NCBI GenBank assembly: GCA_965219685.1
Contig: CBDCOH010000002.1
Span: 1,792,001 to 1,856,000 of the forward strand
Direction of reading: 5' to 3'
DNA from: Candidatus Spongiisociaceae bacterium
GTDB lineage: Bacteria; Actinomycetota; Acidimicrobiia; Spongiisociales; Spongiisociaceae
DNA: 64,000 nucleotides
How positions within the stretch are numbered: the first letter of the stretch is position 1; each line of letters opens with the position of its first letter. Below are positions 41,602-54,423 of the stretch, one piece after another. Both the position numbers and the translations under genes were made by a program. Under the pieces are notes generated by a model. The model did no database searches, was not told where the DNA came from, and worked only from the letters and a program-made list of their open reading frames with translations.

Positions 41602-41626
41602 GCCCCACGGACAACCGACAACGGGC

Positions 41627-42520
41627 TCAGGATGTGGCTTGTTCTACCCTTAGCTTGAAGGTGCGTGCGGAGTGCTGATCCAACGCCCAGTCCACCTGGA
41701 TGACCTCGGGCAGCGAGGCCACCTGCTCGTCCGAAAGTCCCAAGGCGTGGGTCGTCACCAGAACATCACCGGATCCCAGGTCCGGGATGCCATCCGCTCC
41801 TCCCAGGTGAGCCTCGATAGAACCCGAGAAATACTGGCGGACGAGCGACGAGATCCGCTCAATACCCCGCCTGGTGGGTAGGACCACCACCACCCGGCAC
41901 CGCGGGTCGATCGTGGCGATGCGGCGGAGCACACCGGCGGCCGGAACGAAGTTGAGTTCCACGACCCGGTCGAGGCCCGGAGACTTGGCGGCCACATCGG
42001 CGAGATGGAAGAGAGGGACCGCGACCACGTCGAACGTCTCGGTCCAGTCGTCGGCCAGTTCGTCGAGGAGGAGCGGCTCGACCGCCACCCCGGTGGCGTT
42101 CTCGACAATCCGGAACATGCGGCCTAGATCGAACGGGTTGCACTCGGCGAAGGCGACCCTGGTGGTAGTCGTCACCGAGGCGAGAGCCTTCTCGAACATC
42201 CGCTCTATCAGAATCCGGTCGTACCCCGCGGCGGAAGCCCTCGAAACAACGCTGGTCAGGTCCTCCACGATCTTCGACTCGGAGTCGATCCGAGCCGGTT
42301 GGGTGGCGGTCACGAAGGTCCCCCGGCGTTCCTCGGTCCGCACCAGCCCGTCGGCGGACAACCGTCTCAGAGCCCTGCTCACCGTGGAGGGATTCGAACC
42401 GAAGGCAGCCGCCAGGTCCCGGCAGGAAGGTAGGCGCGCGCCCAGCGGGAAGGCGCCGGCGCCGAGCCGCTCGAGGATCAGGAGATAGATGTCGTCGACC
42501 GATCGGGAAGCGCGGTTCAT
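41627..42520 (-). CDS. GntR-family regulator with an atypical C-terminal domain
   Basis: GARLPSCRDLA..FGSNPSTVSRALRRL..DGLV....RRGTFV winged HTH; C-terminal FAECN...VVAVPLFH domain; ATGA overlap with the methyltransferase. Confidence 0.88.
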   Translation of the reverse strand: MNRASRSVDDIYLLILERLGAGAFPLGARLPSCRDLAAAFGSNPSTVSRALRRLSADGLVRTEERRGTFVTATQPARIDSESKIVEDLTSVVSRASAAGYDRILIERMFEKALASVTTTTRVAFAECNPFDLGRMFRIVENATGVAVEPLLLDELADDWTETFDVVAVPLFHLADVAAKSPGLDRVVELNFVPAAGVLRRIATIDPRCRVVVVLPTRRGIERISSLVRQYFSGSIEAHLGGADGIPDLGSGDVLVTTHALGLSDEQVASLPEVIQVDWALDQHSARTFKLRVEQATS

Positions 42521-43488
42521 GGTCTGGTTCCAATGTAGAGGGTCAGGGGATCCTCGCACGGCAACCGCTCGATACCGCAGAATCCCGCTTCGCTCAGCAT
42601 GGCCTCGAGGGTTGCCCGCGAGTGAGCCGCTCCCCCGGTCTCGACGCGCATCATCAGGTCGAACAGCGACCCGAACGCCCCCGGGCCGCTGTCGGCCGAG
42701 AAGTCGTTGACCACCACCCGGCCCCCGGATACGAGCGCGTTCCGTACCCGCTGCAGCAGGTCCACACCCGTCTCCGGTGGTAGGTCGTGCAGGAGGTGCG
42801 ACACCAGAGCGGCATCCACCGACACGGGGGCAACACCGCAGGAAGGATGATCGAAGAGGTCGACCCCGACAACCGAGACACCTGTGCTCGCCAACCGGTC
42901 CGCCGCCCATGCCGCCACCGGGGGGAGATCAACCAGGGTGACATCCGACCCGGCCGCATCGAGCAGGCGCGAATACGTACCGAGCCCGCCGCCCACGTCG
43001 AGCACCCGTTTGCCCGGGGCCAGCTCAGCCAGTTCGTGGAGGGGCGGGCCGCCGATCCTGGCAAGCACATCGAGCGCCTCGAGGAAAGCCAGAGCCCTCC
43101 CGGGACGGGTTCTCAACTGCGATCTCCACGGTTCCATCGCGGCCTGTCCCTCCAGGACGACCTTGTCGAGGCGGGTCCACGCCTCCGCGAAGACCGCTTC
43201 CTTGGCCACGACCAGTGCCATCTCGCCGTCCGGTCCCAGGCGAGCGGCCACGTAGCCGGTGGCGGAGTAGCCATCGGGGGTGGCCTCCGCGAGCCCCAAC
43301 GACACCAGTGCATCCAGCAGCGCGGCGAGGTTCGACGGATCCGCCGACAGTTCCCGAGCCAGGTCTGCCGCTGATCGGGGAGCTCCGGGCAGGACCTCGA
43401 ACAGCCCGACTCGTTGGGCGGCGGCGATCACGGCCGCCGGCTGGTAGCCCGTTATCAAGTCGATCAGGTCCCAGTCGTTGTCGATCAT
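42517..43488 (-). CDS. SAM-dependent O/N-methyltransferase with dimerisation domain (Methyltransf_2)
   Basis: N-terminal AA..VGLFE.L...LA..L helix-turn-helix; VLDVGGGLG, VDLP and SHLLHD. Confidence 0.88.
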   Translation of the reverse strand: MIDNDWDLIDLITGYQPAAVIAAAQRVGLFEVLPGAPRSAADLARELSADPSNLAALLDALVSLGLAEATPDGYSATGYVAARLGPDGEMALVVAKEAVFAEAWTRLDKVVLEGQAAMEPWRSQLRTRPGRALAFLEALDVLARIGGPPLHELAELAPGKRVLDVGGGLGTYSRLLDAAGSDVTLVDLPPVAAWAADRLASTGVSVVGVDLFDHPSCGVAPVSVDAALVSHLLHDLPPETGVDLLQRVRNALVSGGRVVVNDFSADSGPGAFGSLFDLMMRVETGGAAHSRATLEAMLSEAGFCGIERLPCEDPLTLYIGTRP

Positions 43489-45059
43489 CGGCGTCTCAAC
43501 GTTCGATAGAGGCGCCAGCCACGCCGGGCCGCCGACAGGCCGGACAACCTGGCGCGCCTCGAACTCCTGCGACCGAGATCCCCGAGCACGGCCATCGCGG
43601 CGTTCTTGCCGGGCATGCCGGACAGACCACCGCCGGGGAAGGTACCGGCGCCTGACAGGTAGAGCCATGGCGCCTCGGTGCGGTATCCGAGAGCGGTGGG
43701 AGGGCGGCGCGAGAACATCTGGTCGAGGGTCATGTCGATGTGGTTGGGATTTCCGGAGACCGCCCCGGTGCGCCTCTCCCATGCCTGCGGTCCGGTCACC
43801 CGCATGTCGACCATCCGATCCCTGATGTCGTCCCCGGTGATAGAGGCGAAACTGTCCAGAACCCGCTCCGCGGTGGCCATGAGGCCGGCTTCCGTCCATT
43901 CCCCGCCGTGGAGGCGGGCAGGCACGAACGTCGACATCCACGCGGTCCCACCACCCGGGGGCGCCCCCGAGGGATCGAGCGCGGACGGTGACGCCCACAG
44001 GATGGACGGCTCGGAGGGTAAGAGACCGGCCGCGATCTCACCGAAGGAGCGGGTCATGGCGCCCGGCCGGGGCTGGAGCAGCCAGATCGCCTCCGCAGGC
44101 CCGAAGCCGCCAGGTGTCGCCCGTGCGGACAGTGCCAGGTCGACCTTGAACTCGGCCACGTTCAGCGAGCCGCTGGTCGCCTCCCTCGCACCGGCTTCTA
44201 GAGCAGGCAGGCCGGAGACCACGAGACGGCTCGTGCGTGCGATGTCGAGAGTGGAGACCACAACATCGAACCGGTGGTCACCGGTCGCGGAGGTCCGCAA
44301 CGCCACACCACCCTGAGCCCCGTCGATCGATACCACGGCATCGCCGGTGCGGAGGCTTCCTCCGGCAGCTTCGAGCGACTTGGCCAAGGCTTGGATCAGT
44401 TTCTCCGAGCCCCCGACGGGGCGCCCCGGACCGTGTCCGTGCGACCCGGCCAGCAGGAGGCCGAACAGTCCGGTCCCGGGGAGCCAGGGGGGCAGTTGGG
44501 CGAACGAGCCGTACATGGTGAGGGCCGCGGCCAGGTGCTGATCGCTGATGTGGTCGCCCACGATCTTCTCGGACGAACCAAGGATGAGGCCCATGGGGTC
44601 GATGCCTCCGATGGGGCCCAGTCGGGCTATGTCGACAAGTGAGGGACCCGCCGACAACCCGTCGAGGATCGCCAGCAGGTCCGATCCGACCGTTGCGAGC
44701 GTTCTGTACCCGGCGATGTCATCCTGCCCCAGACCGGCGAAGCCCTCCAGCGTCGTATCGAGGTCCCGGTGGAACAGCAAGCTTGTCCCGTCCCCGTATC
44801 CGGCACCGGCTGTCACATCCCGGAAGGCGTACTCCAGCCCGAACCGACCGAGGTCCAGTTCCTCCGCCACCGACAGTATCGCGCCGTGGTCGATCGCCCC
44901 ACGTTCGATCCGATGGCCCGAAGGCAGTTGTTCGGTCCAGATGCACCCGCCCGCGGTCGGGTTCGCTTCGAAGACCGTGACGTCGAGGCCGGCGTTGGCC
45001 AGGTAACAGGCACAGACCAGCCCGTTGTGCCCTCCGCCGATGACGGAGACCCTGGTCAT
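43485..45059 (-). CDS. Phytoene desaturase-family FAD-dependent oxidoreductase
   Basis: GGGHNGLVCACYLA, PVGGS..L, GNPNH.D..LDQ and LYLSGAGTFPGGG.SG.PG. Confidence 0.88.
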   Translation of the reverse strand: MTRVSVIGGGHNGLVCACYLANAGLDVTVFEANPTAGGCIWTEQLPSGHRIERGAIDHGAILSVAEELDLGRFGLEYAFRDVTAGAGYGDGTSLLFHRDLDTTLEGFAGLGQDDIAGYRTLATVGSDLLAILDGLSAGPSLVDIARLGPIGGIDPMGLILGSSEKIVGDHISDQHLAAALTMYGSFAQLPPWLPGTGLFGLLLAGSHGHGPGRPVGGSEKLIQALAKSLEAAGGSLRTGDAVVSIDGAQGGVALRTSATGDHRFDVVVSTLDIARTSRLVVSGLPALEAGAREATSGSLNVAEFKVDLALSARATPGGFGPAEAIWLLQPRPGAMTRSFGEIAAGLLPSEPSILWASPSALDPSGAPPGGGTAWMSTFVPARLHGGEWTEAGLMATAERVLDSFASITGDDIRDRMVDMRVTGPQAWERRTGAVSGNPNHIDMTLDQMFSRRPPTALGYRTEAPWLYLSGAGTFPGGGLSGMPGKNAAMAVLGDLGRRSSRRARLSGLSAARRGWRLYRTLRRR

Positions 45060-46444
45060 AGGAAGGAGTGGACGCCGCTGAGGCCCGCGCTAGCCGCGAC
45101 CGCCCTGGCCAGGAAGCGGCCGCGGGCGATCTGGTCTGCTTCGTCGACGGTGGTGAGCCGGCCATCGGCGAGCAACCGGCGCCCGTCCACCCATACGTTG
45201 CTCACCGACTGCGGTCCGGCGCAGTAGACGACCTGCTGGTAGGGATCGTGGATGGCGGCCAACTCGACCGTGGGATCGAGAAGGACGACGTCGGCGCGCT
45301 TTCGCGGTTCGAGGCTGCCGACCCTGCTGTCGATCCCCAATGCTCGGGCCCCTCCGAGCGTTGCCATCTCCAACGCGTCGACGGCGGACATGACGGCCGG
45401 ATCCAGATGATGAACCTTCTGTAGCAGTGCCGCCATCTTCACCGCTTCGAACATGTTCTGGGAGTCGTTGGAGGCTGGTCCGTCCGTGCCGATCCCGACC
45501 GCCAGCCCTGCCGAGACCAGCCGGGCGAGCGGGCAGACTCCGGAACCGAGGATCATGTTGGCGACCGGGTTGTGCGCCACGGACGCGCCATGGGCGGAGA
45601 GCAGGTCGATGTCCTCTTGGGTGATCCATATCAGGTGGGCGGCCAGCATCGGAACGTCGAGAAACCCGAGCGCCGCGGCCTGGGGCACCGGGCGTCTCCC
45701 CCACCGCAGCGAGGCATGAACCACCTCCTCCCTTACCTCCGCCAGATGGGTGTGCACCCCCCAACCGTTCCGGCGGCACGCGGCCGCACCGGCCTCGAGG
45801 AGTCCGTCGGACTGGCCGAGCAGCGTCCCGATCCCGTACCGGAAGTCGAGGAGTTCCGACTCCCCGGCGAGCCGGGCCAGGTCATGTTGCTCGTCTAGGA
45901 CCTCTTCGATCGGCATGGGCGGAGTCTCGCTGGTCCCCCCGAGCGCGTCCTCGGCGCCGAAGCTGACCGTGCCCCGCAACCCCACCTCGCTGAGACCTCC
46001 GGCAACGCCGAGCGAAGCCCTCGTCCCGGGGTTGGAGTGCACGAACATGTCGTTCACGCAGGTGATCCCGCTCCGGATCATCTCGATCGCCTTCAGGCGG
46101 GTCCCCTCCCGGGCCATCTCGGCGGTGAGGCTCTGAGACACAGGAGTGACGATGTCCTCACCCCATTCGTACAGGGTCTTCTCCGAACCCATGCCCGGCA
46201 CCAACGCCTCGGAGAGGTGGGTGTGGACGTTGACCATTCCAGGCATGACGATCCCGAACCCGTCCCCCACCACCGTCGCGGCGGGATCGATGGCCCGCAG
46301 CCGGTTGTAAGGACCGACGTCGGTGATGGCTCCGGCTTCGATACGGACCGCGCCATCCTCCAGCGGGGGACCCCCGCCCATGGTGAGCACCCAGGCACCC
46401 CGAACCACCACCGTCTCCCGGGGCGGCAGGGCGGCCACCGTCAA
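45056..46444 (-). CDS. Amidohydrolase, AtzA/TrzA/SAH-deaminase-like (paralog of 34102-35454)
   Basis: PGMVNVHTH, HTHLAE, HNPVANMILGSG and DGPASN. Confidence 0.88.
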   Translation of the reverse strand: MTVAALPPRETVVVRGAWVLTMGGGPPLEDGAVRIEAGAITDVGPYNRLRAIDPAATVVGDGFGIVMPGMVNVHTHLSEALVPGMGSEKTLYEWGEDIVTPVSQSLTAEMAREGTRLKAIEMIRSGITCVNDMFVHSNPGTRASLGVAGGLSEVGLRGTVSFGAEDALGGTSETPPMPIEEVLDEQHDLARLAGESELLDFRYGIGTLLGQSDGLLEAGAAACRRNGWGVHTHLAEVREEVVHASLRWGRRPVPQAAALGFLDVPMLAAHLIWITQEDIDLLSAHGASVAHNPVANMILGSGVCPLARLVSAGLAVGIGTDGPASNDSQNMFEAVKMAALLQKVHHLDPAVMSAVDALEMATLGGARALGIDSRVGSLEPRKRADVVLLDPTVELAAIHDPYQQVVYCAGPQSVSNVWVDGRRLLADGRLTTVDEADQIARGRFLARAVAASAGLSGVHSFL

Positions 46445-47700
46445 CCTGCGAGCGCAGCGATCGAGGAACCCAGCACTCCGATGAAGCGGTCTACCTCAGC
46501 ACGCCGGATCACCAGCGGCGGTGCGACCCGGACGGTTCCCGCCGAGTTCAGCATCGAACCGACCACCACACCCCTGCGGGCCATGTCGTCGACCAGCGGC
46601 TGGGCCATTCCGGCCGGATCGACGTCGAACGCGCACCACAGTCCGATCCCTCTGATCCCGACCAGGGTCTCGGGGTGCTGCTCCCGGACGGAGCGCAGAC
46701 CGTCCCGGAGGTACTCCCCCATCTCTGTGGCTCGCTCAACCAGGCCGTCCTGCTCGATCACGTCGAAGGCGGCCACCGCCGCCGCGCAGGAGATCGGGTT
46801 GCCCCCGAAGGTGGTCAGGTGCGAGAGAGGCGGGTCCAGGAACGTGGCAAAGATCTCGGCGGTGGAGATGAACGCCCCCAGGGGCAGGCCCCCGCCGAAG
46901 GCCTTGGCGATGGTGATCACGTCCGGGGTTACCCCCCAGTTCTGGCAAGAGAACCAGTGACCCGAGCGTCCCATTCCTCCCTGCACCTCGTCGCAGATCA
47001 GAAGGGCGCCCCGCTCGGAGCACAACTCCCGCAGTCCGGGGAGGAAACCGTCGGACGGGATCCTCACCCCCCCTTCGCCCTGGACCGGCTCCACGATGAC
47101 CGCGGCTATCTCGCCGTCGATGGCGGCATCGGCGGCGTCGAGATCGTCGAAGGGAACGAACCGAACCGGCTGCAGCAGCGGCTCGAAGGGCTTGCGCCAC
47201 TCCTCCTTCCACGTCACGGATAGCGACCCGAGCGTTCGACCGTGGAAGGAACGCTCGAACGCCACGAAACCCGGGCGGCCCGTGTACTTGCGGGCCAGCT
47301 TCAGCGCCCCCTCGGTGGCTTCGGTGCCGGTGCTGGTCAGGAACGCGACATCGAGATCGCCGGGCGTGACGGAAGCGAGGCGCCGGGCGATCTCCACCTG
47401 GGGCGGCAATGTGAAACGGCCGTACACGTCCACATGGGCGAACCGGTCGAGCTGGTCCTTGATCGCCTCCACGACCACTGGGTGGCAATGCCCGACGTTC
47501 GATACCGCAATGCCCGAGATCATGTCCAGCAGGACCTGGCCCTCGGCGGTCTTCAGCGAGCACCCGGCCGCGTCCACGATGACCCTCTCCTTGATACCGG
47601 GCACTGTCTGGCACAGGTGCGCCACGAAGTCGGATCGGTAGGCGTCGGCATCGGATCCGGACATCACCGGCCGGGTGTCGAGTTGTTTGAACCCGGTCAC
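46441..47700 (-). CDS. Class III PLP aminotransferase (acetylornithine/putrescine aminotransferase-like)
   Basis: GTEATEGALK, FHGRT, EPVQGEGG, DEVQGG.GRSG and AKAFGGG. Start at GTG 47700 (overlapping the aldolase stop) or ATG 47664. Confidence 0.9.
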   Translation of the reverse strand: MTGFKQLDTRPVMSGSDADAYRSDFVAHLCQTVPGIKERVIVDAAGCSLKTAEGQVLLDMISGIAVSNVGHCHPVVVEAIKDQLDRFAHVDVYGRFTLPPQVEIARRLASVTPGDLDVAFLTSTGTEATEGALKLARKYTGRPGFVAFERSFHGRTLGSLSVTWKEEWRKPFEPLLQPVRFVPFDDLDAADAAIDGEIAAVIVEPVQGEGGVRIPSDGFLPGLRELCSERGALLICDEVQGGMGRSGHWFSCQNWGVTPDVITIAKAFGGGLPLGAFISTAEIFATFLDPPLSHLTTFGGNPISCAAAVAAFDVIEQDGLVERATEMGEYLRDGLRSVREQHPETLVGIRGIGLWCAFDVDPAGMAQPLVDDMARRGVVVGSMLNSAGTVRVAPPLVIRRAEVDRFIGVLGSSIAALAG

Positions 47701-48401
47701 TGTCCGTGACCCTGACCGGTAGCCGACCGCTCTCCGAAGGTCCGGAGCATCCATCGCTTCGCTCTTACCAGCTCGGCCCCCGAGTCCTCCATCCGCAGTT
47801 TCCACAGCCTCTCGGGTCTGGCCTCCATCCCGAAGAGGGCGCCCCGGGCCTGCACGACCACCCGAGCCCGTTCTTCCAGGAACCAGAGTCGGGTGGCGGC
47901 TTCGAGGAGATCGCCACCGACCGACAGAGCTCCGTTGGCCGCCAGGAGCATGCTGAAGTCGTCGCCCAGCGTCGCCGCTACCCGGTCGGCGTGCTCGTCG
48001 GACTTGACGAGTTCGATCTCCGGATGGACCCGCACCCCCGCGCCTGCGATGCCACCGAGCCCATGGAGAAGGGGCAGCCGCTCGTTGGTGACACCCCATA
48101 CCACGGCGAAGGGAGGATGGCCCCTGCAGATGGCCACGACTCCGGGACGGGCCCGGTAGATGGCATCGTGCATCGGCGCCTCAAGGGGAAGCCGGTCCAC
48201 CGGACCCCCCACCGGAACGCCCGCATCGACCACGACCACGTCCTCGGCCGTGCAATCGGACATGGGACGGGTGCTGGTGATCAGGAAACCTCGCTCGGTT
48301 CGAGCCGATACATGCCCGAACGCTTCGACCAATCCGGCCGACGCAATCATCCGGGCGGTGGCCGCCACGTCGCTACGCCTCGAACGCGAGACCGAGATCA
48401 T
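47697..48401 (-). CDS. Class II aldolase/adducin-family protein (possible decarboxylase)
   Basis: AFGHVSAR and EAPMHDAIYRARP.V.AICRGH; the usual HxH reads RGH and the NHG motif reads ANG. Confidence 0.8.
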   Translation of the reverse strand: MISVSRSRRSDVAATARMIASAGLVEAFGHVSARTERGFLITSTRPMSDCTAEDVVVVDAGVPVGGPVDRLPLEAPMHDAIYRARPGVVAICRGHPPFAVVWGVTNERLPLLHGLGGIAGAGVRVHPEIELVKSDEHADRVAATLGDDFSMLLAANGALSVGGDLLEAATRLWFLEERARVVVQARGALFGMEARPERLWKLRMEDSGAELVRAKRWMLRTFGERSATGQGHGQ

Positions 48402-49429
48402 CGGCTGTCGAGCCAGGCAACGAGGTGGGTCAGGCTCTCCGGAAGGCCGAGTGGGGTGTCGTTGCCGTCGCCCCTCGCGTAGATGGCTCGTACCGCGCCC
48501 GGGGTCGCCTTGCGGCCTTCGGAGCGGAGCCGGACCGCCAGCCGCGTGCGAGCCTCCTCCAGTTGGTCCTGGCTCGGCATGACCGTCACGAGGTCGGGCG
48601 CCGTTTCCAGGACACCCATGAGTTGGACCGGCCCCTCGAGCCCGCTCCGCGACATGGACAAGCCCTCCGCTCTCCGGAAGGCCCGGTCGGCCAGGAAGCT
48701 GCGATGTGTCAAGCCCGGAGACACCCAGGCGCCGATCGCCGCGTAGTACGGAGACAGCCTCGTCAGTGACTTCGCGATCACTTCTGCCAGGTAGTTGTGA
48801 GTCTCGGCGTAGGCTTGCCGTTCCGCGGGTCCCCACCTCCACTTGCCGTTGCTCAACGGGACGGCGGTGCAGTCCTCCCGCTCGGGCGAGACCGAGGTGC
48901 CCCTCGCCTCGAAGAGTCCGGGATCGTCGTAGGCAGCAGCCGGACTCCGACGCCCCTCCCAGTAGTAGATGTTGGAGTAGGGCACGATCGCCAGAGGTTC
49001 CGAAAGCACGAAACGGTCCAGGTACACGTTCCCCTTCTGCAGGGGACCGTCGTGCACCAGAGCCGGATGCTCACCTTCATCCAGGTAGTCGTGCAGGTCT
49101 ACGGGTGCCGCGGATGCACCGTGCGGCGCCCAGCCTGCCGCCAGCAGCGCCCCGTTGATGGCGCGATGCTCACGACTCGTCGAATACGGCTTGAACTTCG
49201 TGCAGGGGATCAGCAGCGCGACGCGACGGGCACCCGCCGCCGTGTCGGGCGGCGCCCACCGGTCCGCCACGTACTCGTGGAATGCGGCCACCTCGGGATG
49301 GCTCATCGCATCCCGATTGGCCTGCGGGGAGTAGAACCGCAGTGACGGATCCAACTCGAACGGTGGACGGATCTTTCGCGCCGACTCGTCCCAGCGGGAG
49401 TCGATCGTCGCTTGCTCTGTGATGGTCAT
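48398..49429 (-). CDS. Hypothetical protein with an archaeosine synthase (ArcS/DUF5591)-like domain
   Basis: LLIPCTKFKPYSTSREH and LSEPLAIVP...PAAAYD resemble the PCxxxKPYxxSxxH and SPLGxVP...YD motifs; GGGAGG RBS. Confidence 0.6.
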   Translation of the reverse strand: MTITEQATIDSRWDESARKIRPPFELDPSLRFYSPQANRDAMSHPEVAAFHEYVADRWAPPDTAAGARRVALLIPCTKFKPYSTSREHRAINGALLAAGWAPHGASAAPVDLHDYLDEGEHPALVHDGPLQKGNVYLDRFVLSEPLAIVPYSNIYYWEGRRSPAAAYDDPGLFEARGTSVSPEREDCTAVPLSNGKWRWGPAERQAYAETHNYLAEVIAKSLTRLSPYYAAIGAWVSPGLTHRSFLADRAFRRAEGLSMSRSGLEGPVQLMGVLETAPDLVTVMPSQDQLEEARTRLAVRLRSEGRKATPGAVRAIYARGDGNDTPLGLPESLTHLVAWLDSR

Positions 49430-49447
49430 GGTTGCCTCCCGTCAGGT

Positions 49448-50050
49448 TCACCCATCCCGGACTCTCATCAGCATGGAGGTGGGATTGAAGTCATTGCACG
49501 GGGTCAGATCCTGGGGACAGGCCGAGAGCAGCACGACCAGATCCTCATGGACCTGCAGGGTGATGGTGGCACCGGCCTCGTGGGCGGCCCGGTCGGTCAC
49601 CACGTCCCCGTCGTCGGTGACGCGGTTGTGCATGAAGACGTTCCAGGCGGTCTCGCCGTACAACTCCACATCCTCGCCCAGCAGGTCCCGGGCCTGCTCG
49701 AGGTTGGCCAAGCAGTGAGGATGGTCGTCCAGGTCGTAGTCCCGCTTGAAACGTTCATGGTCGCAGCAGGGAACGATGATGTCGTGCTTTTCCACGTCGT
49801 CCCGCACGATCGTGAAGACCGGGTTGCGGTGGTTGGAGAACAGCTGCGAGCCGGTCGCGAGCAGGATCGAAGCGTTGCACGAAACGGTATGGGTCGGGGA
49901 CAGGTACTCGGCGGGATCGTTGCGGAACCACGCGATCAGGTCACCCACCTGGTGGCCTTCAAGATCGACGATATCGAGCAGTTGGCCCTTCTCGACATAC
50001 ACACCCCGGCCCTCCCGAGCCGGGACGATCACTTCAGTTGCTCGTCCCAT
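49448..50050 (-). CDS. DUF1989 / urea carboxylase-associated family protein
   Basis: GQLL.IVDLEG.QVGD, HDII..CC, CLANL and LSACPQD...CN. Confidence 0.88.
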   Translation of the reverse strand: MGRATEVIVPAREGRGVYVEKGQLLDIVDLEGHQVGDLIAWFRNDPAEYLSPTHTVSCNASILLATGSQLFSNHRNPVFTIVRDDVEKHDIIVPCCDHERFKRDYDLDDHPHCLANLEQARDLLGEDVELYGETAWNVFMHNRVTDDGDVVTDRAAHEAGATITLQVHEDLVVLLSACPQDLTPCNDFNPTSMLMRVRDG

Positions 50051-50060
50051 TCTTCCATCT

Positions 50061-50226
50061 CCAGTTGGTCCCGTTGCCCGTTGCCCGTGTACGGCTACCA
50101 CACCTAGCTAGCTCATCGTGGTCGGTCCTAGCCCGGAAGGCGAGTACCCTCCAGAATTCGCCACCATTCACCATTCACCATTCACCATTCACCACTCACC
50201 ACTCACCACTCACCACTCACCACTCA
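50061..50226. repeat. Composite heptamer element, copy B
   Basis: CCMGTTG heptamers, a core homologous to 41355-41428, then (CACCATT)x4 (CACCACT)x5 at 50162-50224. Confidence 0.9.
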
Positions 50227-51411
50227 AACATGGGCTGATCCGGGGAGTTCGCCTACCTCGGGGGTGACCGTGACCTGGCGGGCCGCCGCGGGGGTGTTCC
50301 GGCTGCGGAGGGCTCTGATGCGCCCGTCGATGAGCACCGCGCTGATACCGGGAATGTCGCCTCGTGCCAGCGCCCCGAGCGCGTCGCCTCCGTATGAGCC
50401 CCACGGGGCGTCGGCGATTACGAGATCGGCTGGCCGGCCCACCTCGATCTTTCCGGCCTCCAGGTCATAGACATCGGCGGTGACGCCCGAGGCCCACGCC
50501 CAGACAACTGCCGGGTCGGCGTCGGACAGGGAGGACAGTTCGGCCATCGTCTTGACAACACCCAGGGGCATGACACCGGTTCCGGTGGGAGTGTCCGACC
50601 CGATGATGACCCGGTGTTCGGCGCCGCTCTCGAGCGCTGCGTTCACAATCTTGATCGCGCTGCGGACGTTGCCCGCCTGCACGATCTGGAGAACGAGATC
50701 GGTGTTCCGGACGATCTCGAGAACCCCGTCGTCATCGAGGGAGGAGGGACCACCGTTGACGTGACCGCACACGTCGGGCTTGAGCAGCATCAGGTGCTCG
50801 GTGGTGATCGGCTTGGATCCCGGGATCGAAGCGCCTCCCGAGTGGCACATCACCCGGATTCCGACCTCCTGTGCGGCCTGCACCTGTGGCAGGCCGTCGG
50901 CAGGATCCGCGTAGCGGCCGAACCCGAATTTGGCGAGGCGAACACCCTGTTCCGCCAGGTAGCGAAAGTGCTCCGGTTCCAGGGTGGGCTCCAGAACCAC
51001 CGCGCCCCCATGGACCTTCATGCCGTTGGGCCGGTAGTTGCTCCACGAGCGCTGGGCGAACACTGCGAGGGCGACGACCCCGTCGGCGTCGTGCGGTCTC
51101 CCCGGAGCGTGGATCTCCCCAGGAGAGATCGCCTGGGTGATTCCCCCGTGCACGTAGGAACTGAGAAAACCGACCACGTTCTGGCGGGGCGTGAAGTCGC
51201 CGATGACCACATGGCAATGGGAATCGATCAGGCCGGGGCCCACCGTGGCCCCGTTGGCGTCGATGACCTGGTCGGCCTGCTGGGATCCCGCCGCGGACCC
51301 GATCGAGGCGAACCGCCCGTCCTCGATGAGCAACGCCTCGGCGTCACGAACCGGCTGGCCGAGGTCGCCCGTAACCAGGGTTCCGATGTTGATGACCGCG
51401 GTCCGAGACAA
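50224..51411 (-). CDS. Enamidase-like amidohydrolase
   Basis: NIG.LV.GD...P, PGLIDSHCH...GDFTPRQ, HGG.T..IS.GE.H.PGRP.D, KVHGGAV.LE, HSGGASIPGS, HVNGGP and GSDTPTG match my recollection of the nicotinate-fermentation enamidase. Confidence 0.85.
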   Translation of the reverse strand: MSRTAVINIGTLVTGDLGQPVRDAEALLIEDGRFASIGSAAGSQQADQVIDANGATVGPGLIDSHCHVVIGDFTPRQNVVGFLSSYVHGGITQAISPGEIHAPGRPHDADGVVALAVFAQRSWSNYRPNGMKVHGGAVVLEPTLEPEHFRYLAEQGVRLAKFGFGRYADPADGLPQVQAAQEVGIRVMCHSGGASIPGSKPITTEHLMLLKPDVCGHVNGGPSSLDDDGVLEIVRNTDLVLQIVQAGNVRSAIKIVNAALESGAEHRVIIGSDTPTGTGVMPLGVVKTMAELSSLSDADPAVVWAWASGVTADVYDLEAGKIEVGRPADLVIADAPWGSYGGDALGALARGDIPGISAVLIDGRIRALRSRNTPAAARQVTVTPEVGELPGSAHV

Positions 51412-51421
51412 TCCGGGACCC

Positions 51422-52003
51422 CTAACGCAGTCCGTCCTCGCCTATGACGTCCTCGGCCATCAAGCCCCCCAGCCGCGCGTTCGGGCGTCCGCGGTTGGCC
51501 GCCGCTACCGCCACCACGACCTCGTCGGGCCGGGGAGCATCTCCGGGATTCAAGGTGACCGCGTCGTAGTTGTCGCGCACGTAGAGGGCGTCCTTGTGAG
51601 CAAGGGGGATAGTGATCGGGGTACCGGCAGCTCCGACGATGGTGGCGGACGACATCCAGGCCACCCCGCCGCCGACCTCCTCGCGCAGGGGATTGGCGAA
51701 GGCGGTGGAAAGGAACATCACCACATGTTCCTGGGAACCGGCCAGCCCCGCTATCCCACCCTTCCCGTAGGACTGGACCGGGTCGCCGAGTGCTTCCGTG
51801 GCCATCACCCCCAACCGCAAGCCCAGACCGGCGGAGAATGCGACAGCTTCCGACAGATCCTCGTGGTAGGCGCCCGCGTACGGGTTGTGGATGACGGCCG
51901 CCACTATCACCTTCCGCAGCGGCGGATCGGCCCTGATGCCCTCCCGGCTTCGCTCCTCCTCGATCTGGGTGATGAACTTGCGGATCGGGAACTCGAGACT
52001 CAA
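51422..52003 (-). CDS. Amino-acid-synthesis family protein (AA_synth, function unknown)
   Basis: AAVIHNPYAG, SYGKGG..G..G, IPLAHKD and DAPRPDE...GRP.AR. Confidence 0.8.
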   Translation of the reverse strand: MSLEFPIRKFITQIEEERSREGIRADPPLRKVIVAAVIHNPYAGAYHEDLSEAVAFSAGLGLRLGVMATEALGDPVQSYGKGGIAGLAGSQEHVVMFLSTAFANPLREEVGGGVAWMSSATIVGAAGTPITIPLAHKDALYVRDNYDAVTLNPGDAPRPDEVVVAVAAANRGRPNARLGGLMAEDVIGEDGLR

Positions 52004-52755
52004 AGGGACTCCCTCCTGGCTGCGTCGGCAGCCGGCGGGTAGGTGCGGTCGAACAGTCCCTCTTCCAGGCCGTCCAGGTAGTCGAGGACGTCCTCGAGGT
52101 CCGTGACGTCCACATACTTCATGTGCAGGTCGAACAGGGTGATCTTGTGGGACACCTCCCCGCGGTCGAACACCGCCTCGTGCGGGATGGTGACGAGAAA
52201 ATCGTAGGACAGGGCGTCGACGGCGCTGGCCCGGACGCAGCCGCTGGTGGTGGTGCCGGTCAGGATCAGCGAATCGGCTCCCATCATGTTCAGGTGGCTC
52301 ACCAGGGGCGTCCCGAAGAAGGCGGACGGTTTGCGCTTCTCTATGAACAGGTCGCCGGGCTCCGGCCCGATCTCTGCCACGATCTCGTTGCCCTTGTGGC
52401 CCATGACGTCTACCTCATCCTCGGACCGGGTGCTCTTCAGGGTCCACACGCCGAGGTCGAAGCCATCGGAGCGCCGCGGGTTGGTCGTGTAGATCACCGG
52501 AAGGCGCTTGCGACGGGCCACGTCGAGTATGCGGCGGATCGCCGGGATCCCGCGCTCCCAGGCCTCGGGACCGCAGGCGTAGCGCCACTTCTTGATCGAC
52601 TCGAGGATCGGCTCGGCCCGGTCGCCGCAGAAGTTGTAGTTGACATCGATCACCATGATCGCCGGCCGTTTCCCGTATCCGGCCCGTTTGCCCCAGCCGG
52701 CCTCCTCGAAGACGACCCGGTCGGTGTCGGTGAGCACGTCGTCCCAGATCGGCAT
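52000..52755 (-). CDS. Isochorismatase-family amidase (N-carbamoylsarcosine amidase / maleamate amidase-like)
   Basis: GYGKRPA.MVID, KRKPSAFFGT and TTTSGCVRAS (Asp-Lys-Cys triad); KYVDV. Confidence 0.88.
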   Translation of the reverse strand: MPIWDDVLTDTDRVVFEEAGWGKRAGYGKRPAIMVIDVNYNFCGDRAEPILESIKKWRYACGPEAWERGIPAIRRILDVARRKRLPVIYTTNPRRSDGFDLGVWTLKSTRSEDEVDVMGHKGNEIVAEIGPEPGDLFIEKRKPSAFFGTPLVSHLNMMGADSLILTGTTTSGCVRASAVDALSYDFLVTIPHEAVFDRGEVSHKITLFDLHMKYVDVTDLEDVLDYLDGLEEGLFDRTYPPAADAARRESL

Positions 52756-52757
52756 GG

Positions 52758-54368
52758 TCAACCGCCCCTCACACTGCGGTATCTGGTCGTCTCGGGGGCG
52801 AACCCCGGACGGTCGAACTCGTCGGCCAGCCACCGGTCGGTAGGCGCCACCCGCACCGGGCTCACGGGATCCATCATCCGGGTCGCAGCCCGGAGCGAGC
52901 GGGGTAGGTACTCCCCTCTCGGCTCGCCTACCGGACGCATCCCCGGCGAGTCGTCGGCCCACTCGGCCGAGATCTCTCCGCGCAGGATGGTCATGATGGG
53001 CCAGCCGGTGAAGTCGTGGCCTTCCATGATCGACCAACCCGACCGGGTGTTGATGTGCTCCTTGCCGACGGTCACCTCCCTGCCGAGGTCGATGATCACC
53101 ATGTCGGCGTCGAAACCGGGCAGGAGCGAACCCTTCTGGCCCCAGAGCCCGGAGGTCTTCGCCGGGTTCTCGCAGCTGACCTGGACCGCCCGCTCGAGAC
53201 TGATGCGGCCCTTGTTAACCCCTTCCGAGAGCATCACCGGCAGGAACAGTTCCACACGGGAGAATCCCGTCCGGCAGTCCCAGATGACCGGGTTGTACAT
53301 CTCCTCGTGAGAGGACGGCTCCCATCCGACCACGTGGTCGGAGCCGACCACATCGACGGTCCCGTCGGCGAGGGCCACCCAGAGGGCTTCGATGTTGTCG
53401 CGCCGGCGGAGCGGGACGTTGATGCGCCAGCCGTACTCGGGTTCGGCCCACAGCCAGGGAGGTCCGGTCTGGGCGTAGAGCTCGAGTCCTTCGGCCCGCG
53501 CCCTTGCCACCTCCTCGAACGACAGCCTGGTCGTGCAGTGCTGCAGGTACAGGGGCACGTTGCCCGGGGTCTGCATGGCGAGGTATGCGTAGGAGCGGAT
53601 GTGGTGCGCCTCCAGGAAGTCGGGCGACCGGTCGGTCCAGGACCCGAAGTCGGTTCTCCCGCTCTCGCGGAGGCGGTCCTCGAAAATACGGCCGATCTCC
53701 CAGTTCTCCGGATGGATGTGGACGATCCCCGGACGTCCTATATGGGCGACCTCTTCCATCACCATGAATACGGTGCCGTCGTCGATGCCCTCCCCGAGAC
53801 CGGCCCTCCGCGACGGCCAGTTGGTGTCCGTGTCGTCGCCGAAACCCTTCATGGAACGGGTCTGGAGGTACAGCTTGAAGGAGGTGACGCCGTGCTCCTC
53901 CGCGTACTGGGGGATCTCCCGGGCATGCTCGTCTGTCTCGAGCATGTACGTGAGGTAGGCGTCCACGTGGCTCACCTCGTTGATCACGTCCCGCCCCGAC
54001 GGGAACGACTCGTTGAACGAGACCACATCGGCCCTGGCCACGACTTCCTTGAACGGTTTGGTACCGAGACGGGTGGTGGGCGCCTGGATACCCCACGTGG
54101 TGATGCCCGCCGTGGCCGCCGCCCTCGACTCGGTGGTCATGTCGTAGTCGAATGGCACGTAACACCCGGGATGCGCCTCGGAATCGACCACCCCCGGAAG
54201 GACGTAGTTGCCACGAGCGTCGATCGTCCGCGCAGCTGCCGGCAGCAGTTCTTCGGGCGCCAGAACGGCCACCTTGCCGTCCTTGACCCCGACTGCAACC
54301 CGGTACCGCCCTCCGCCGAGTACGACCGTCCCGTTGACTACTGCGAGATCGAGAGGTTCTCGTGCCAT
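52758..54368 (-). CDS. Cyclic amidohydrolase (allantoinase/dihydropyrimidinase-like), ExH variant
   Basis: PGVVDSEAHPG, TSFKLY, HPEN, QHCT, NVPLR, GSDH and GFDAD; start at ATG 54368 after GGGAG/GGAG. Confidence 0.85.
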   Translation of the reverse strand: MAREPLDLAVVNGTVVLGGGRYRVAVGVKDGKVAVLAPEELLPAAARTIDARGNYVLPGVVDSEAHPGCYVPFDYDMTTESRAAATAGITTWGIQAPTTRLGTKPFKEVVARADVVSFNESFPSGRDVINEVSHVDAYLTYMLETDEHAREIPQYAEEHGVTSFKLYLQTRSMKGFGDDTDTNWPSRRAGLGEGIDDGTVFMVMEEVAHIGRPGIVHIHPENWEIGRIFEDRLRESGRTDFGSWTDRSPDFLEAHHIRSYAYLAMQTPGNVPLYLQHCTTRLSFEEVARARAEGLELYAQTGPPWLWAEPEYGWRINVPLRRRDNIEALWVALADGTVDVVGSDHVVGWEPSSHEEMYNPVIWDCRTGFSRVELFLPVMLSEGVNKGRISLERAVQVSCENPAKTSGLWGQKGSLLPGFDADMVIIDLGREVTVGKEHINTRSGWSIMEGHDFTGWPIMTILRGEISAEWADDSPGMRPVGEPRGEYLPRSLRAATRMMDPVSPVRVAPTDRWLADEFDRPGFAPETTRYRSVRGG

Positions 54369-54384
54369 CGCTCCAAACTCCCGT

Positions 54385-54414: not shown

Positions 54415-54423
54415 GCCCATCGT

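Follow-up and report, generated by a model that had tools for sequence, protein, structure and literature searches.

What do twelve coupled genes encode when, as a set, they match no described pathway yet are common to distant bacteria? The question is raised by a locus in the window, i.e., the whole stretch of 64,000 nucleotides of a Candidatus Spongiisociaceae genome that was analyzed. Twelve genes at 41627-54368, all on the minus strand, carry the domains named in the initial annotation. In transcription order, these genes are:

g1, 52758-54368, minus strand: cyclic amidohydrolase, hydantoinase/dihydropyrimidinase-like (Pfam Amidohydro_1/3; NCBIfam)
g2, 52000-52755, minus strand: isochorismatase-family amidohydrolase (Pfam Isochorismatase, PF00857, 96.9 bits)
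g3, 51422-52003, minus strand: AA_synth/DUF1185 protein (Pfam PF06684, 188 bits)
g4, 50224-51411, minus strand: enamidase homologue, an amidohydrolase (Pfam; PDB 2vun)
g5, 49448-50050, minus strand: DUF1989 protein (Pfam PF09347, 137.5 bits)
g6, 48398-49429, minus strand: stand-alone ArcS C1-like (DUF5591) protein, the anchor of the system (Pfam PF17884)
g7, 47697-48401, minus strand: class II aldolase/adducin-family protein (Pfam Aldolase_II, PF00596, 93 bits)
g8, 46441-47664, minus strand: class III (omega-type) aminotransferase (Pfam Aminotran_3, PF00202, 363 bits)
g9, 45056-46444, minus strand: TRZ/ATZ-family amidohydrolase (Pfam Amidohydro_1, 188 bits)
g10, 43485-45059, minus strand: CrtI/amine-oxidase-like flavoprotein (Pfam Amino_oxidase and NAD_binding_8)
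g11, 42517-43488, minus strand: SAM-dependent O-methyltransferase-like protein (Pfam Methyltransf_2, 58 bits; Dimerisation, 41 bits)
g12, 41627-42520, minus strand: GntR-family regulator (Pfam GntR, residues 9-70; C-terminal domain without family assignment)

Coordinates and Pfam assignments support a coupled operon that encodes hydrolases and deaminases of the N-heterocycle type and has the GntR gene last, as initially described. By gene coordinates, 4-nt overlaps are found at six of the eleven junctions (g2/g3, g6/g7, g8/g9, g9/g10, g10/g11, and g11/g12), and the remaining five are gaps of 2, 10, 18, 32, and 173 nt. The longest of these gaps, separating g4 from g5, contains one copy of a dispersed repeat that looks mobile. 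A simple scan of 40000-58000 detected no terminator-like site on the minus strand. The gene set had been called unrecognised, and it remains so: no curated NCBIfam cut-off was reached among the matches listed, and a literature search found neither a description nor a published pathway with this gene set.

To place the operon in context, 80 loci were compared, all of them picked via g6, so that every conservation figure depends on this anchor gene. All 12 genes are present in 12 loci, from Acidimicrobiia, Actinocorallia, and Chloroflexota, and at least 10 of the 12 genes are present in 22. Because the complete set recurs in 12 of the 80 loci, the gene set is not a mosaic. Across these 12 loci, which represent two phyla, gene order is rearranged and content is kept; recurrence was the test to which the initial annotation had subjected its own reading. 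The cluster carriers include soil actinomycetes, Chloroflexota, and sponge symbionts. The genes fall into two modules, with both present in 20 loci, the lower only in 20, and the upper only in 18. The lower, ring-opening module contains the hydantoinase-like, isochorismatase-like, AA_synth, enamidase-homologous, DUF1989, and class II aldolase-type genes. The upper module contains the ArcS-C1-like, aminotransferase, deaminase, CrtI-like, and O-methyltransferase genes, together with a plus-strand transporter operon and an HDAC-like gene elsewhere in the window:

28218-29237, minus strand: HDAC/acetylpolyamine-amidohydrolase-like enzyme (Pfam Hist_deacetyl, 215 bits; start MIVYFDP)
29365-30093, plus strand: ATPase of a NitT/TauT-type ABC importer (NCBIfam ABC ATP-binding rows only)
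30090-30941, plus strand: BPD_transp_1 permease of the NitT/TauT-type importer (Pfam)
30985-33234, plus strand: substrate-binding protein fused from two copies (tandem duplication of 1041 bp, in frame)
33239-34105, plus strand: nitrilase-superfamily (CN_hydrolase) enzyme (Pfam PF00795, 93.7 bits)
34102-35454, plus strand: second TRZ/ATZ-family amidohydrolase, a paralogue of g9 (Pfam, 188 bits, and HUTI composite domain)

The operon is thus only part of a system that consists of separable modules plus the transporter/amidase operon and HDAC-like gene at 28218-35454. The importer ATPase and permease are co-located with g6 in 25 and 26 of the 80 loci, respectively. The binding protein, flagged in the initial annotation, belongs to the system, with homologues in 30 of the g6-anchored loci, including inside the cluster in Actinocorallia. 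It has no Pfam match and no PDB sequence match; its single-domain relatives are called ABC substrate-binding or nitrate-type in the Atlas, where NMT1 is found in 16% of one neighbouring cluster. The CN_hydrolase gene is found in 20 of the 80 loci, with all its NCBIfam rows far below cut-off. The second TRZ/ATZ amidohydrolase reaches 296 bits against NCBIfam TRZ/ATZ (cut-off 540), and its homologues co-locate with g6 in many loci. The HDAC-like gene is divergent from the transporter operon, and its homologues (52-69% identity) were located in 17 loci, where they mostly follow g6 directly.

It is highly improbable that the locus is not one pathway, but a chance juxtaposition of unrelated amidohydrolase genes or the biosynthesis of a methylated natural product. 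The methyltransferase and CrtI-like flavoprotein are typically biosynthetic enzymes, a repeat of mobile appearance separates g4 from g5, and the two halves separate in other genomes. These points are set against the full 12-gene set with the same content in two phyla, the six overlapping junctions, the importers with binding proteins that accompany the cluster in about 45 of the 80 loci, and Pfam scans showing no core biosynthetic enzyme (synthetase, PKS, NRPS, or cyclase). The combination of importers and binding proteins, numerous amidohydrolases, and a GntR regulator argues for catabolism rather than synthesis, and the system most likely breaks down an unusual N-rich nucleobase-like heterocycle.

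The lower-module genes show family-level similarity to ring-opening enzymes. The g1 product (gene present in 40 of the 80 loci) scores 185 bits against NCBIfam dihydropyrimidinase, below the cut-off of 393, and its best PDB match is L-hydantoinase 1gkr (E 1.2e-49). At 46-47 bits, the NCBIfam matches of g2 (42 of 80) to RutB and biuret amidohydrolase are weak and fall far short of the cut-offs. The g3 protein matches the uncharacterised proteins 2qtp and 3byq in the PDB; its AF2 model (pLDDT 86.6) aligns in VIA-align with 3byq (Z 26) and 2qtp (Z 20.9), followed by weak Rid/YjgF-like rows (Z about 5). In other loci its frequent partner is a second aldehyde dehydrogenase, and g3 may act in enamine/imine handling or as a decarboxylase. 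The g4 protein is a full-length homologue of the enamidase 2vun (E 2.9e-104, residues 1-380 of 395). It is found in 49 of the 80 loci, and in a 301-genome sample of the class, g4 matches of at least 70% identity occur only in the 5 g6-carrying genomes, adjoining g6. The g5 gene (51 of 80) lies directly upstream of g6 almost always; its product matches NCBIfam UAAP2 (109 bits, cut-off 284.7) and PDB 3oru. For g7, NCBIfam ranks 3,4-dihydroxyphthalate decarboxylase first (60.7 bits, cut-off 200). This gene accompanies the lower module, being absent from the listed upper-only loci L038, L042, L054, L049, and L051; it does occur in L048 and L072.

Among the upper-module genes, g8 (51 of 80 loci) is most similar in NCBIfam to acetylornithine transaminase (392 bits, cut-off 457) and putrescine aminotransferase (353 bits, cut-off 612). 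The g9 protein shares 47% identity with its paralogue at 34102-35454, and its best PDB match is MTA/SAH deaminase 4f0r (237 bits), followed by 8-oxoguanine deaminase (159) and guanine deaminase (83). The g10 flavoprotein scores 200 bits against NCBIfam CrtO (cut-off 1000) with only weak PDB matches, and g11 reaches no NCBIfam equivalog cut-off. Both genes are found in 39 of the 80 loci, together in 38. The regulator gene g12 is present in 29.

The g6 protein matches PF17884 at 26.5 bits, against a cut-off of 26, over an N-terminal stretch of 44 of the 150 profile positions only. Seven residues (P75, C76, K80, P81, Y82, S85, and H88) are invariant among 19 homologues and form the motif PC-X3-KPY-X2-S-X2-H. 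According to the available part of PMC10516641, this motif and domain constitute the archaeosine synthase catalytic core that acts on the preQ0 nitrile. The motif also matches PDB 2q07 (AF0587). The AF2 model of g6 (pLDDT 90.1) aligns with 2q07 at Z 10.9 (rmsd 2.6, 137 aligned), with the next row at Z 5.7; AF0587 is its only clear structural relative in this comparison. The complete catalytic motif of archaeosine synthase is retained in g6, which probably represents the catalytic C1 core of that enzyme. A total of 474 g6 homologues were retrieved, and all names listed for the 120 best read 'hypothetical protein'. In loci that lack the lower module, g6 remains with the upper genes.

A second link comes from the neighbourhood. 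In 5 of the 80 loci, a six-gene module with a Bmp-type ABC importer, Q_salvage (PF10343, the Qng1 family), and IU_nuc_hydro lies directly beside the cluster. These loci belong to Microbacterium (L038, L039, and L041), Nocardioides (L064), and one Actinomycetota MAG, covering at least three lineages and three arrangements; in the MAG the module is co-directional and directly upstream of g1 in a 12/12 cluster. In the text available from PMC11130926, Qng1 and QueK are the two characterised queuosine hydrolases, and Q_salvage is specific for a 7-deaza nucleoside. The window's own genome has the same module at C2:2.589-2.598 Mb, about 750 kb from the cluster. Bmp-type (nucleoside-type) binding proteins stand alongside the cluster in 16-19 of the 80 loci.

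Because of the intact ArcS motif in g6 and the Qng1-like/IU-NH nucleosidases beside the cluster in five loci, we favor a 7-deazapurine substrate, and tentatively read the cluster as a modular catabolism of free 7-deazaguanines (queuine, preQ1, and preQ0; also archaeosine base). The Bmp-type binding proteins, the confinement of close g4 matches to the five g6-carrying genomes of the class sample, and a lower module combining cyclic-ureide hydrolase, ureido amidase, deiminase-type DUF1989, and enamidase homologue also support this reading. The initial annotation, which is partly supported, had suggested a modified purine, pyrimidine, or pyridine; the evidence gathered since favors a pyrrolo-pyrimidine (7-deazapurine), and its pyridine/nicotinate lead gained no further support. 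From the observed domain content, gene order, conservation, and neighbourhood, we infer the substrate and every reaction step by family membership.

The ABC importer (29365-33234) would take up the base. Queuine would be released from queuosine by way of the nucleoside importer and Qng1-like/IU-NH nucleosidases, a separate operon here, and g10 could then catalyze oxidative C-N cleavage at its secondary amine. The 7-aminomethyl group of preQ1 would be converted to an aldehyde by g8 and by an aldehyde dehydrogenase to 7-carboxy-7-deazaguanine. This aminomethyl-formyl-carboxyl sequence fits the strongly conserved gene order g6, aldehyde dehydrogenase, aminotransferase, in which the Aldedh gene adjoins g6 in 29 loci other than the window. 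Nitrile, amidine, and amide forms would be handled by g6, through its conserved cysteine, and the nitrilase-type and HDAC-like amidases, with g6 performing cysteine-dependent nitrile/amidine chemistry on the free 7-deazaguanine. The TRZ/ATZ enzymes (g9 and its paralogue) would take off the exocyclic amino group, and g7 the carboxyl group, as a heteroaromatic carboxylate decarboxylase. In the lower route, g1 would open the pyrimidinedione ring, g2 would hydrolyse off a ureido or carbamoyl group, g5, a putative deiminase for amino/imino heterocycles, would deiminate the 2-aminopyrrole, and g4 would convert the resulting cyclic enamide (lactam) to an aldehyde and NH3. As enamidase yields an aldehyde, a pyrrole ring (carbon at ring position 7) rather than an imidazole is suggested, and this product fits the aldehyde dehydrogenase that many loci pair with AA_synth. 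The route would be completed by g3 together with an aldehyde dehydrogenase. The g12 regulator may keep the operon repressed as long as neither the substrate nor an intermediate is bound.

Several observations count against the 7-deazaguanine reading. Among solved structures, g9 is closest to adenosine-type (MTA/SAH) deaminases and not to guanine deaminase. Only 5 of the 80 loci have the nucleosidase module next to the cluster, and Q_salvage is not enriched with the cluster at the genome level (69 of 301 genomes of the class versus 2 of the 5 g6-carrying genomes there, and 1 of 5 other cluster-carrying genomes). The methyltransferase g11, the near-constant companion of g10, has no role in the scheme, and the aldehyde dehydrogenase that it requires is missing from the window. 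Five genomes with upper-only loci have no enamidase homologue at E ≤ 1e-20, and therefore would not degrade the ring by the proposed route. Queuine is a trace nutrient and an odd match for a system of about 18 genes.

The importer, NitT/TauT-type with distant NMT1-like relatives, would fit pyrimidine-like ligands equally. Aminomethyl-pyrimidine catabolism, starting from thiamine-derived 4-amino-5-aminomethyl-2-methylpyrimidine or its N-formyl form, is nonetheless quite unlikely. The HDAC-like enzyme would deformylate, g8 and aldehyde dehydrogenase would convert aminomethyl to carboxyl, g9 would deaminate the 4-amino group, and g7 would decarboxylate, after which the ring would be hydrolysed and g5 and g6 would handle the amidine products. 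Its points of contact are the importer type and the weak NMT1/THI5 signals of the binding-protein relatives, the deamination of 6-aminopurine/4-aminopyrimidine rings by the best solved relatives of g9, the HDAC-like gene adjoining g6 in 17 loci, and the decarboxylase match of g7; class II aldolase-type decarboxylases of ortho-hydroxy heteroaromatic acids are known. However, no thiamine gene family is found among the neighbour families present in at least four loci, a monocyclic pyrimidine needs no ureide-ring hydrolase together with an enamidase, and a ureido amidase is needless if C2 bears a methyl. The ArcS motif and the Q_salvage and IU-NH genes beside the cluster would also be unexplained.

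Another N-rich heterocycle or amidine/guanidine compound, for example a pyridine, lactam, cyclic amidine (ectoine-like osmolyte), pterin, or host or soil alkaloid, is possible if somewhat unlikely. This corresponds to the general reading of the initial annotation, in which no substrate was named. It agrees with the absence of any equivalog-level match among those listed, with the known role of enamidase in pyridine-ring breakdown, and with a carrier range that suits a widespread compound. The HDAC-like, aminotransferase, and aldehyde dehydrogenase genes also resemble the deacetylase-transaminase-dehydrogenase logic of ectoine/polyamine metabolism. Such a residual class makes no prediction of its own, however, and leaves both 7-deazaguanine links, the ArcS C1 motif and the Qng1-like/IU-NH module, unexplained.

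Purine breakdown by an aerobic/actinobacterial counterpart of the clostridial xanthinase route is an unlikely alternative to 7-deazaguanine catabolism. In such a hydrolytic pathway, the upper genes would trim modified purines to xanthine, g1 would convert xanthine to 4-ureido-5-imidazolecarboxylate, g2 would remove the ureido group, and g7 or g3 would decarboxylate; g5 would then deaminate 4-aminoimidazole, g4 open the imidazolone, and g6 handle the formamidine of formiminoglycine. Step order and number match the lower module one for one, as far as the pathway is laid out in the accessible parts of PMC3519856 and PMC12507026. The system includes two purine-type deaminases, some clusters have IU-NH nucleosidases and nucleoside-type importers nearby, and upper-only organisms could hand xanthine to ordinary purine catabolism. 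Against this, g4 is a close enamidase homologue and not of the imidazolonepropionase type, and an imidazolone cannot give the aldehyde of enamidase. The persistence of g6 in upper-only loci argues that it is not the last lower-route step, and the 7-deaza specificity of Q_salvage does not fit. The scanned window ORFs, a GC3-selected set rather than every frame, showed no uricase, allantoinase, or large subunit of xanthine dehydrogenase, nor the molybdopterin large subunit already reported as lacking. The lower route proposed here for 7-deazaguanines and the clostridial xanthinase pathway are chemically parallel, the likeness being one of reaction steps.

The operon at 41627-54368 contains twelve minus-strand genes, g1 to g12 in transcription order. 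The initial annotation had named a series of twelve domains here, and every one was confirmed by Pfam:

52758-54368, minus strand: g1, cyclic amidohydrolase
minus strand: g2, isochorismatase-family protein
minus strand: g3, AA_synth protein
50224-51411, minus strand: g4, amidohydrolase
49448-50050, minus strand: g5, DUF1989 protein
48398-49429, minus strand: g6, DUF5591 protein (ArcS C1 domain)
minus strand: g7, class II aldolase
minus strand: g8, class III aminotransferase
minus strand: g9, TRZ/ATZ-type amidohydrolase
minus strand: g10, CrtI/amine-oxidase-like flavoprotein
minus strand: g11, O-methyltransferase with dimerisation domain
41627-42520, minus strand: g12, GntR regulator

The genes are coupled as had been described, with 4-nt overlaps at six of the eleven junctions and gaps of 2, 10, 18, 32 and 173 nt at the others. 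The label "enamidase-like" for g4 also proved correct: residues 1-380 align with chain residues 1-383 of the solved enamidase 2vun in a full-length alignment (E 2.9e-104).

None of the twelve proteins reaches a curated cut-off in NCBIfam among the matches listed, and g3 has no NCBIfam match. The g1 protein scores 185 bits on the dihydropyrimidinase equivalog (cut-off 393), below the level of the reductive pyrimidine pathway (PydABC). On the UAAP1/UAAP2 models, g5 stays below both cut-offs (109 bits against 284.7 and 68 bits against 206), and no carboxylase of guanidine degradation (CgdAB-type systems) was found in Pfam scans of the window ORFs. The top NCBIfam match of g7 is an aromatic-acid decarboxylase, below cut-off. 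DpdL was considered as a model for g7 and rejected, as it is a QueD paralogue with no relation to class II aldolases. We had presumed that AA_synth might be a unit like cyanuric-acid hydrolase or barbiturase; neither is among the best 50 structural-search matches of g3, which include Rid/YjgF-like and chorismate-mutase-like proteins at Z of about 5, and the presumption may still hold.

The g6 protein (343 aa) appears from its sequence to be a relative of the ArcS catalytic core and not an archaeosine synthase. It scores 33.2 bits on the ArcS equivalog NF040592 (cut-off 440), and no PUA, TGT-like or C2 domain was detected in it by Pfam. Its match to PF17884 barely passes the cut-off (26.5 bits against 26) and covers profile positions 1-44 of 150 only, and many g6 homologues carry a precomputed PF17884 annotation. 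Residues P75, C76, K80, P81, Y82, S85 and H88 are invariant in 19 g6 homologues (55-85% identity), giving the motif PC-X3-KPY-X2-S-X2-H. In the text available, this motif is the mark of the ArcS C1 domain and PF17884/DUF5591 is the catalytic core; the C1-only phage ArcS2, when co-expressed with a transglycosylase that inserts dPreQ0, yields the archaeosine-type base dG+ (PMC10516641). The only PDB sequence match of g6 is AF0587 (2q07), through the motif. A Foldseek search of the g6 model (pLDDT 90.1) against the PDB gave nothing at E <= 0.001, with 2q07 best at E 0.039, and this relationship, left below threshold, was settled by a wide VIA-align search (Z 10.9, rmsd 2.6, 137 aligned residues, 24% identity; next Z 5.7). 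On the predicted model, AF0587 is thus the only clear structural relative of g6. The extra regions of g6 are without any match.

The conservation of the gene set was examined with g6 as the anchor, because it is central in the cluster and rare. A large protein collection contains 474 g6 homologues; all names listed among the best 120 read "hypothetical protein", and these come mostly from Acidimicrobiia MAGs, sponge-associated lineages included. An alignment of 19 homologues retrieved 191 relatives from a one-genome-per-species collection; the analysis used the best 80 of these as loci, each extended by at most 10 kb per side. Gene presence was scored by local tblastn of the twelve proteins at a query coverage of at least 50%. 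Of the 80 loci, 12 have all twelve genes and 22 have ten or more, every one of them among the 49 loci of at least 20 kb; these figures are conditional on g6, through which all 80 loci were selected. The complete loci belong to five close relatives, another Actinomycetota MAG (L033), four Actinocorallia species (L035, L037, L040, L044) and a Chloroflexia MAG with two complete contigs (L057, L058), and a second Chloroflexi MAG (L070) has 11 of the 12 genes. Gene content is kept between these groups and gene order varies. The set had been open to the objection that it might not be conserved elsewhere; its recurrence as a whole, reordered between lineages, shows that it is not a random mosaic. In an anchor-independent check of 301 genomes of the class, g6 occurs in five; g4 matches of at least 70% identity occur in exactly these five, at most 2 kb from g6. 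Three more of the 301 genomes hold distant g4 homologues only (38-49%).

The 80 loci further resolve into modules. The lower set (g1, g2, g4 and g5, usually with g3 and g7) is found in 40 loci and the g10-g11 pair in 38; they occur together in 20, the lower set alone in 20, and g10 and g11 without the lower set in 18. The lower set is absent in members of Microbacterium, Herbiconiux, Mycolicibacterium and Nocardioides, whose loci have g6, an aldehyde dehydrogenase, g8-g11 and often g12; no enamidase homologue was found at E <= 1e-20 anywhere in five such upper-only genomes. Neighbour families were defined by clustering every long ORF in the 80 loci, and representatives of the clusters were searched with Pfam. 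GC3-based calling picked antisense frames where the GC content was about 71-73%, and was replaced by tblastn mapping together with Pfam searches of each long ORF; three frequent ORF clusters without a Pfam match (12, 16 and 17) are apparent antisense shadows of real genes and were left uncounted. Five extra families accompany g6.

Families accompanying g6 across the 80 loci
Aldehyde dehydrogenase: directly after g6; 29 loci; not in the window
NitT/TauT-type ABC importer, binding protein without a Pfam family: 30 loci
Nitrilase-superfamily enzyme: 20 loci
Second TRZ/ATZ amidohydrolase: travels with g6
HDAC-like amidohydrolase: 17 loci; window copy at 28218-29237, divergent from the plus-strand operon

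Four of these families are present in the window, in the plus-strand operon 29365-35454 and the HDAC-like gene 28218-29237, so the system comprises at least 18 genes in two blocks. The blocks are parted by a toxin-antitoxin and miscellaneous stretch; a Phd/YefM-PIN pair and an AbiEii-like fragment lie between them at 35370-37419. In Actinocorallia, the importer and amidohydrolase lie inside the cluster, in the g3-g4 interval. A Bmp/PnrA-type (nucleoside-type) ABC importer replaces or joins the NitT/TauT type in about 16-19 loci. The nicotinate genes (molybdopterin large subunit hydroxylase, 6-hydroxynicotinate reductase, NicC/NicX) are absent from the neighbour families occurring in at least four loci and from the scanned window ORFs, which agrees with the earlier statement that the window has no molybdopterin large subunit or 6-hydroxynicotinate reductase. 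In two Kaistia species (L078, L080), a distant homologue of g6 (43% identity) belongs to another kind of nitrogen-compound cluster, whose members include an amidase, polysaccharide-deacetylase-like proteins, a flavin monooxygenase, a 2OG oxygenase, a class III aminotransferase, an HDAC-like enzyme, an aldehyde dehydrogenase, TRZ/ATZ amidohydrolases and an AraC regulator.

Regulatory signals were also searched for. An Rfam scan at gathering threshold of the window and four other loci (L035, L038, L057, L054) found a single riboswitch, of the glycine type, in L054 and far from the cluster. No palindrome that could serve as a GntR operator is common to the intergenic regions inspected. The promoter/terminator scan gave no promoter-like and one terminator-like site (plus strand) and is uninformative in DNA this rich in GC. 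The stretch is partly present in sponge, coral and marine metagenomes, with no RNA runs among those listed.

Several repeats and further loci were observed in the window. Within the binding-protein gene 30985-33234, a 1041-bp segment is perfectly duplicated in tandem and in frame (31159-32189 = 32200-33230), and the 749-aa product has two binding-protein copies. In short-read contigs, depth over the repeat unit is about double that of its flanks, and the copy junction is bridged by a 70-nt contig in source-sample runs (X1, X2) and in an independent sponge metagenome (X5); an assembly artefact is therefore unlikely. An intergenic element of about 110 nt, with a variable (CATTCAC)n heptamer array after it, is dispersed in the genome, where it has 27 blastn matches, its own copy counted; arrays of four or more units number 70. 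Two copies flank or interrupt operon genes:

50051-50223: dispersed element in the g4/g5 gap, within the operon
41330-41600: dispersed element downstream of g12, 24 units

A minus-strand pair at 54559-56960 encodes a fumarate-reductase/succinate-dehydrogenase-like flavoprotein (TfrA-like, 554 bits, below cut-off) and an Fe-S subunit. It lies directly upstream of g1 and co-directional with it, is kept there among the 80 loci only in the two closest relatives (L001, L003), and could be a clade-specific ring reductase. On the plus strand, 57514-58446 encodes an orphan CoxM-like FAD-binding subunit of a molybdopterin dehydrogenase, with no large or small subunit seen in the scanned window ORFs. 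Two more nitrogen-compound utilisation clusters (11517-22054 and 60114-63973) contain amidohydrolases, an Asp/Glu/hydantoin racemase, NMT1-type ABC importers, a nitrilase-family enzyme and Rieske oxygenases.

In other genomes, a link to queuosine is seen in the neighbourhood of the cluster. An operon that precedes it in Microbacterium aquimaris has the genes of a Bmp-type ABC importer (binding protein, ATPase and two permeases), of Q_salvage (PF10343, Qng1 family) and of an IU-type nucleoside hydrolase. The same six-gene module flanks the cluster in two further Microbacterium species and one Nocardioides, and in the complete L033 locus it lies directly upstream of g1 and co-directional. In total, the module adjoins the cluster in 5 of the 80 loci, in at least three lineages and three arrangements. 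We take IPR023186 to be the inosine/uridine-preferring nucleoside hydrolase family. In the accessible text of PMC11130926, the QueK family was retrieved under IPR023186, and Qng1 and QueK are the two characterised enzymes that release queuine from queuosine. The genome of the window has the module too, at a distance of about 750 kb and accompanied by genes for a LacI regulator and an MFS protein. This operon (L082; C2:2587290-2597706) encodes a PfkB kinase, LacI, a Bmp-type ABC importer, Q_salvage, an MFS protein and an IU nucleoside hydrolase. It is homologous (42-60% identity) to the module that elsewhere is fused to the cluster, and looks like a queuosine uptake and hydrolysis locus. Q_salvage is present in 69 of the 301 genomes of the class, in two of the five g6-bearing genomes there, and in one of five other cluster-bearing genomes examined (not found in four). 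These genome-level data show no enrichment and count against an obligate link between g6 and Q_salvage.

Among the substrates considered, a pyrrolo[2,3-d]pyrimidine appears to account for the most genes. We tentatively propose that the cluster encodes a first 7-deazapurine catabolic pathway, in which a queuine-type base or queuosine would be imported and the ring system dismantled purely by hydrolysis with a recruited ArcS core and enamidase; we regard this as possible, somewhat short of probable. Imported queuosine would be cleaved by the Qng1-like and IU-NH enzymes to a queuine-type base, whose secondary amine could be oxidised by g10. The g8 aminotransferase may convert the 7-aminomethyl group of preQ1 to 7-formyl, and the conserved aldehyde dehydrogenase would take this to 7-carboxy-7-deazaguanine. 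Nitrile (preQ0), amidine and amide forms may be handled by g6 with the nitrilase-type and HDAC-like amidases, the ArcS catalytic core being presumably recruited to free-base nitrile/amidine chemistry. The two TRZ/ATZ enzymes would deaminate and g7 would decarboxylate. The pyrimidinedione ring would then be opened by g1 to 2-ureidopyrrole-3-carboxylate, the ureido group removed by g2, and the 2-aminopyrrole deiminated by g5; DUF1989 proteins presumably include carboxyguanidine deiminase. Finally, g4 would open the cyclic enamide (a pyrrole-derived lactam) to an aldehyde and ammonia, as enamidase does on tetrahydro-6-oxonicotinate. Since g4 is an enamidase homologue, the product would be an aldehyde and the ring a pyrrole, not an imidazole. 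The end of the route may involve g3 and a second aldehyde dehydrogenase, often paired with g3 in other loci.

Some observations do not fit this scheme. The g11 methyltransferase, nearly always alongside g10, has no role in it; that the genes serve no single pathway, or a biosynthetic one, is nevertheless very improbable given the recurrence of the whole set. The aldehyde dehydrogenase is absent from the window, with seven distant paralogues elsewhere in the genome, and among solved structures g9 is closest to MTA/SAH deaminases, not to guanine deaminases. The upper-only organisms could not open the ring by the proposed route. Catabolism of an N-heterocycle of another kind would leave the ArcS C1 motif and the adjoining queuosine module unexplained; we consider this unlikely, though it carries real weight. 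Distant relatives of the window's importer type bind pyrimidine-like ligands, as an aminomethyl-pyrimidine route might have it; that route, which accounts for fewer of the genes, is distinctly improbable. Queuine is also scarce. Because of these misfits, we hold 7-deazaguanine catabolism as the reading of the cluster with reserve, at a little under an even chance.

If the cluster degrades 7-deazaguanines, it provides a testable gene set for their fate in nature. The available text of PMC11130926, on salvage, names uptake, nucleoside hydrolysis and tRNA re-insertion only. Catabolism would add a microbial sink for a micronutrient that animals, sponge hosts included, must get from bacteria, and would suggest that symbionts may compete with hosts for queuine. 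It would also give functions to AA_synth/DUF1185, bacterial DUF5591, this DUF1989 branch and non-nicotinate enamidases. With another substrate, these roughly 18 genes would still form a system that is widely shared, has carriers in culture and has no pathway on record, and therefore a good target for pathway discovery. Carriers in culture include Actinocorallia aurantiaca JCM 8201 (L035, all twelve genes), Microbacterium aquimaris KCTC 19124 (L038, upper genes and Qng1 module) and Herbiconiux moechotypicola KCTC 19653 (L042).

The cluster was compared with known systems. No NCBIfam equivalog model fits it among the matches listed. The full-text literature searched, with subscription papers mostly outside reach, describes neither the gene set nor any 7-deazapurine catabolic pathway, and phrases for queuine or queuosine degradation do not occur in it. 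The earlier remark that the gene set is not recognisable as a described pathway is supported. From the sequences, we rate it as a probable hydrolytic nucleobase catabolic cluster, with an inferred substrate and an unprecedented use of the ArcS catalytic core. Like phage ArcS2, g6 is a stand-alone C1-like protein, with the C1 motif and the fold of the ArcS-like protein AF0587; unlike ArcS and ArcS2, it lies among small-molecule hydrolases and importers and not among nucleic-acid modification genes. The g4 protein is a full-length homologue of the enamidase of Eubacterium barkeri nicotinate fermentation, but its partners are ureide-type hydrolases, and nicotinate dehydrogenase was unseen in the scanned window ORFs. 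The reductive uric acid pathway of E. coli and C. difficile (XdhD, YgfK, SsnA, HyuA, YgeW, YgeY, YgeX) opens both purine rings with the TRZ/ATZ-related SsnA and a hydantoinase-type enzyme, as far as the text available goes (PMC12507026). By comparison, g9 scores 169 bits on the SsnA model (cut-off 455), and counterparts of YgfK, YgeW, YgeY and YgeX were absent from the scans.

The clostridial xanthinase pathway comprises xanthine amidohydrolase, 4-ureido-5-imidazolecarboxylate amidohydrolase, a decarboxylase, 4-aminoimidazole deaminase and imidazolonase. According to the accessible parts of two papers, its steps are pyrimidinedione opening, ureido stripping, decarboxylation, amino-azole deamination and opening of a five-membered lactam (PMC3519856; PMC12507026). 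The lower route as proposed mirrors it step for step, in a comparison by reaction steps and not by gene families, and would share its oxygen-independent hydrolytic logic. This likeness would also suit a purine substrate, but the final ring opener here is an enamidase homologue; a purine (xanthinase-like) route is improbable. The hosts of the cluster are Actinomycetota and Chloroflexota, not Clostridia or Bacilli. For 7-deazaguanines, an enamidase in place of imidazolonase is what a carbon at ring position 7 would require. Bacterial queuosine/queuine salvage (Qng1, QueK, QueL, transporters) uses the same nucleosidase families and an importer of the kind found beside the cluster in five loci, and the available text of PMC11130926 describes no link between salvage and base breakdown. 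Whereas salvage ends in insertion into tRNA, the deaminases and ring-opening hydrolases of this cluster would destroy the base.
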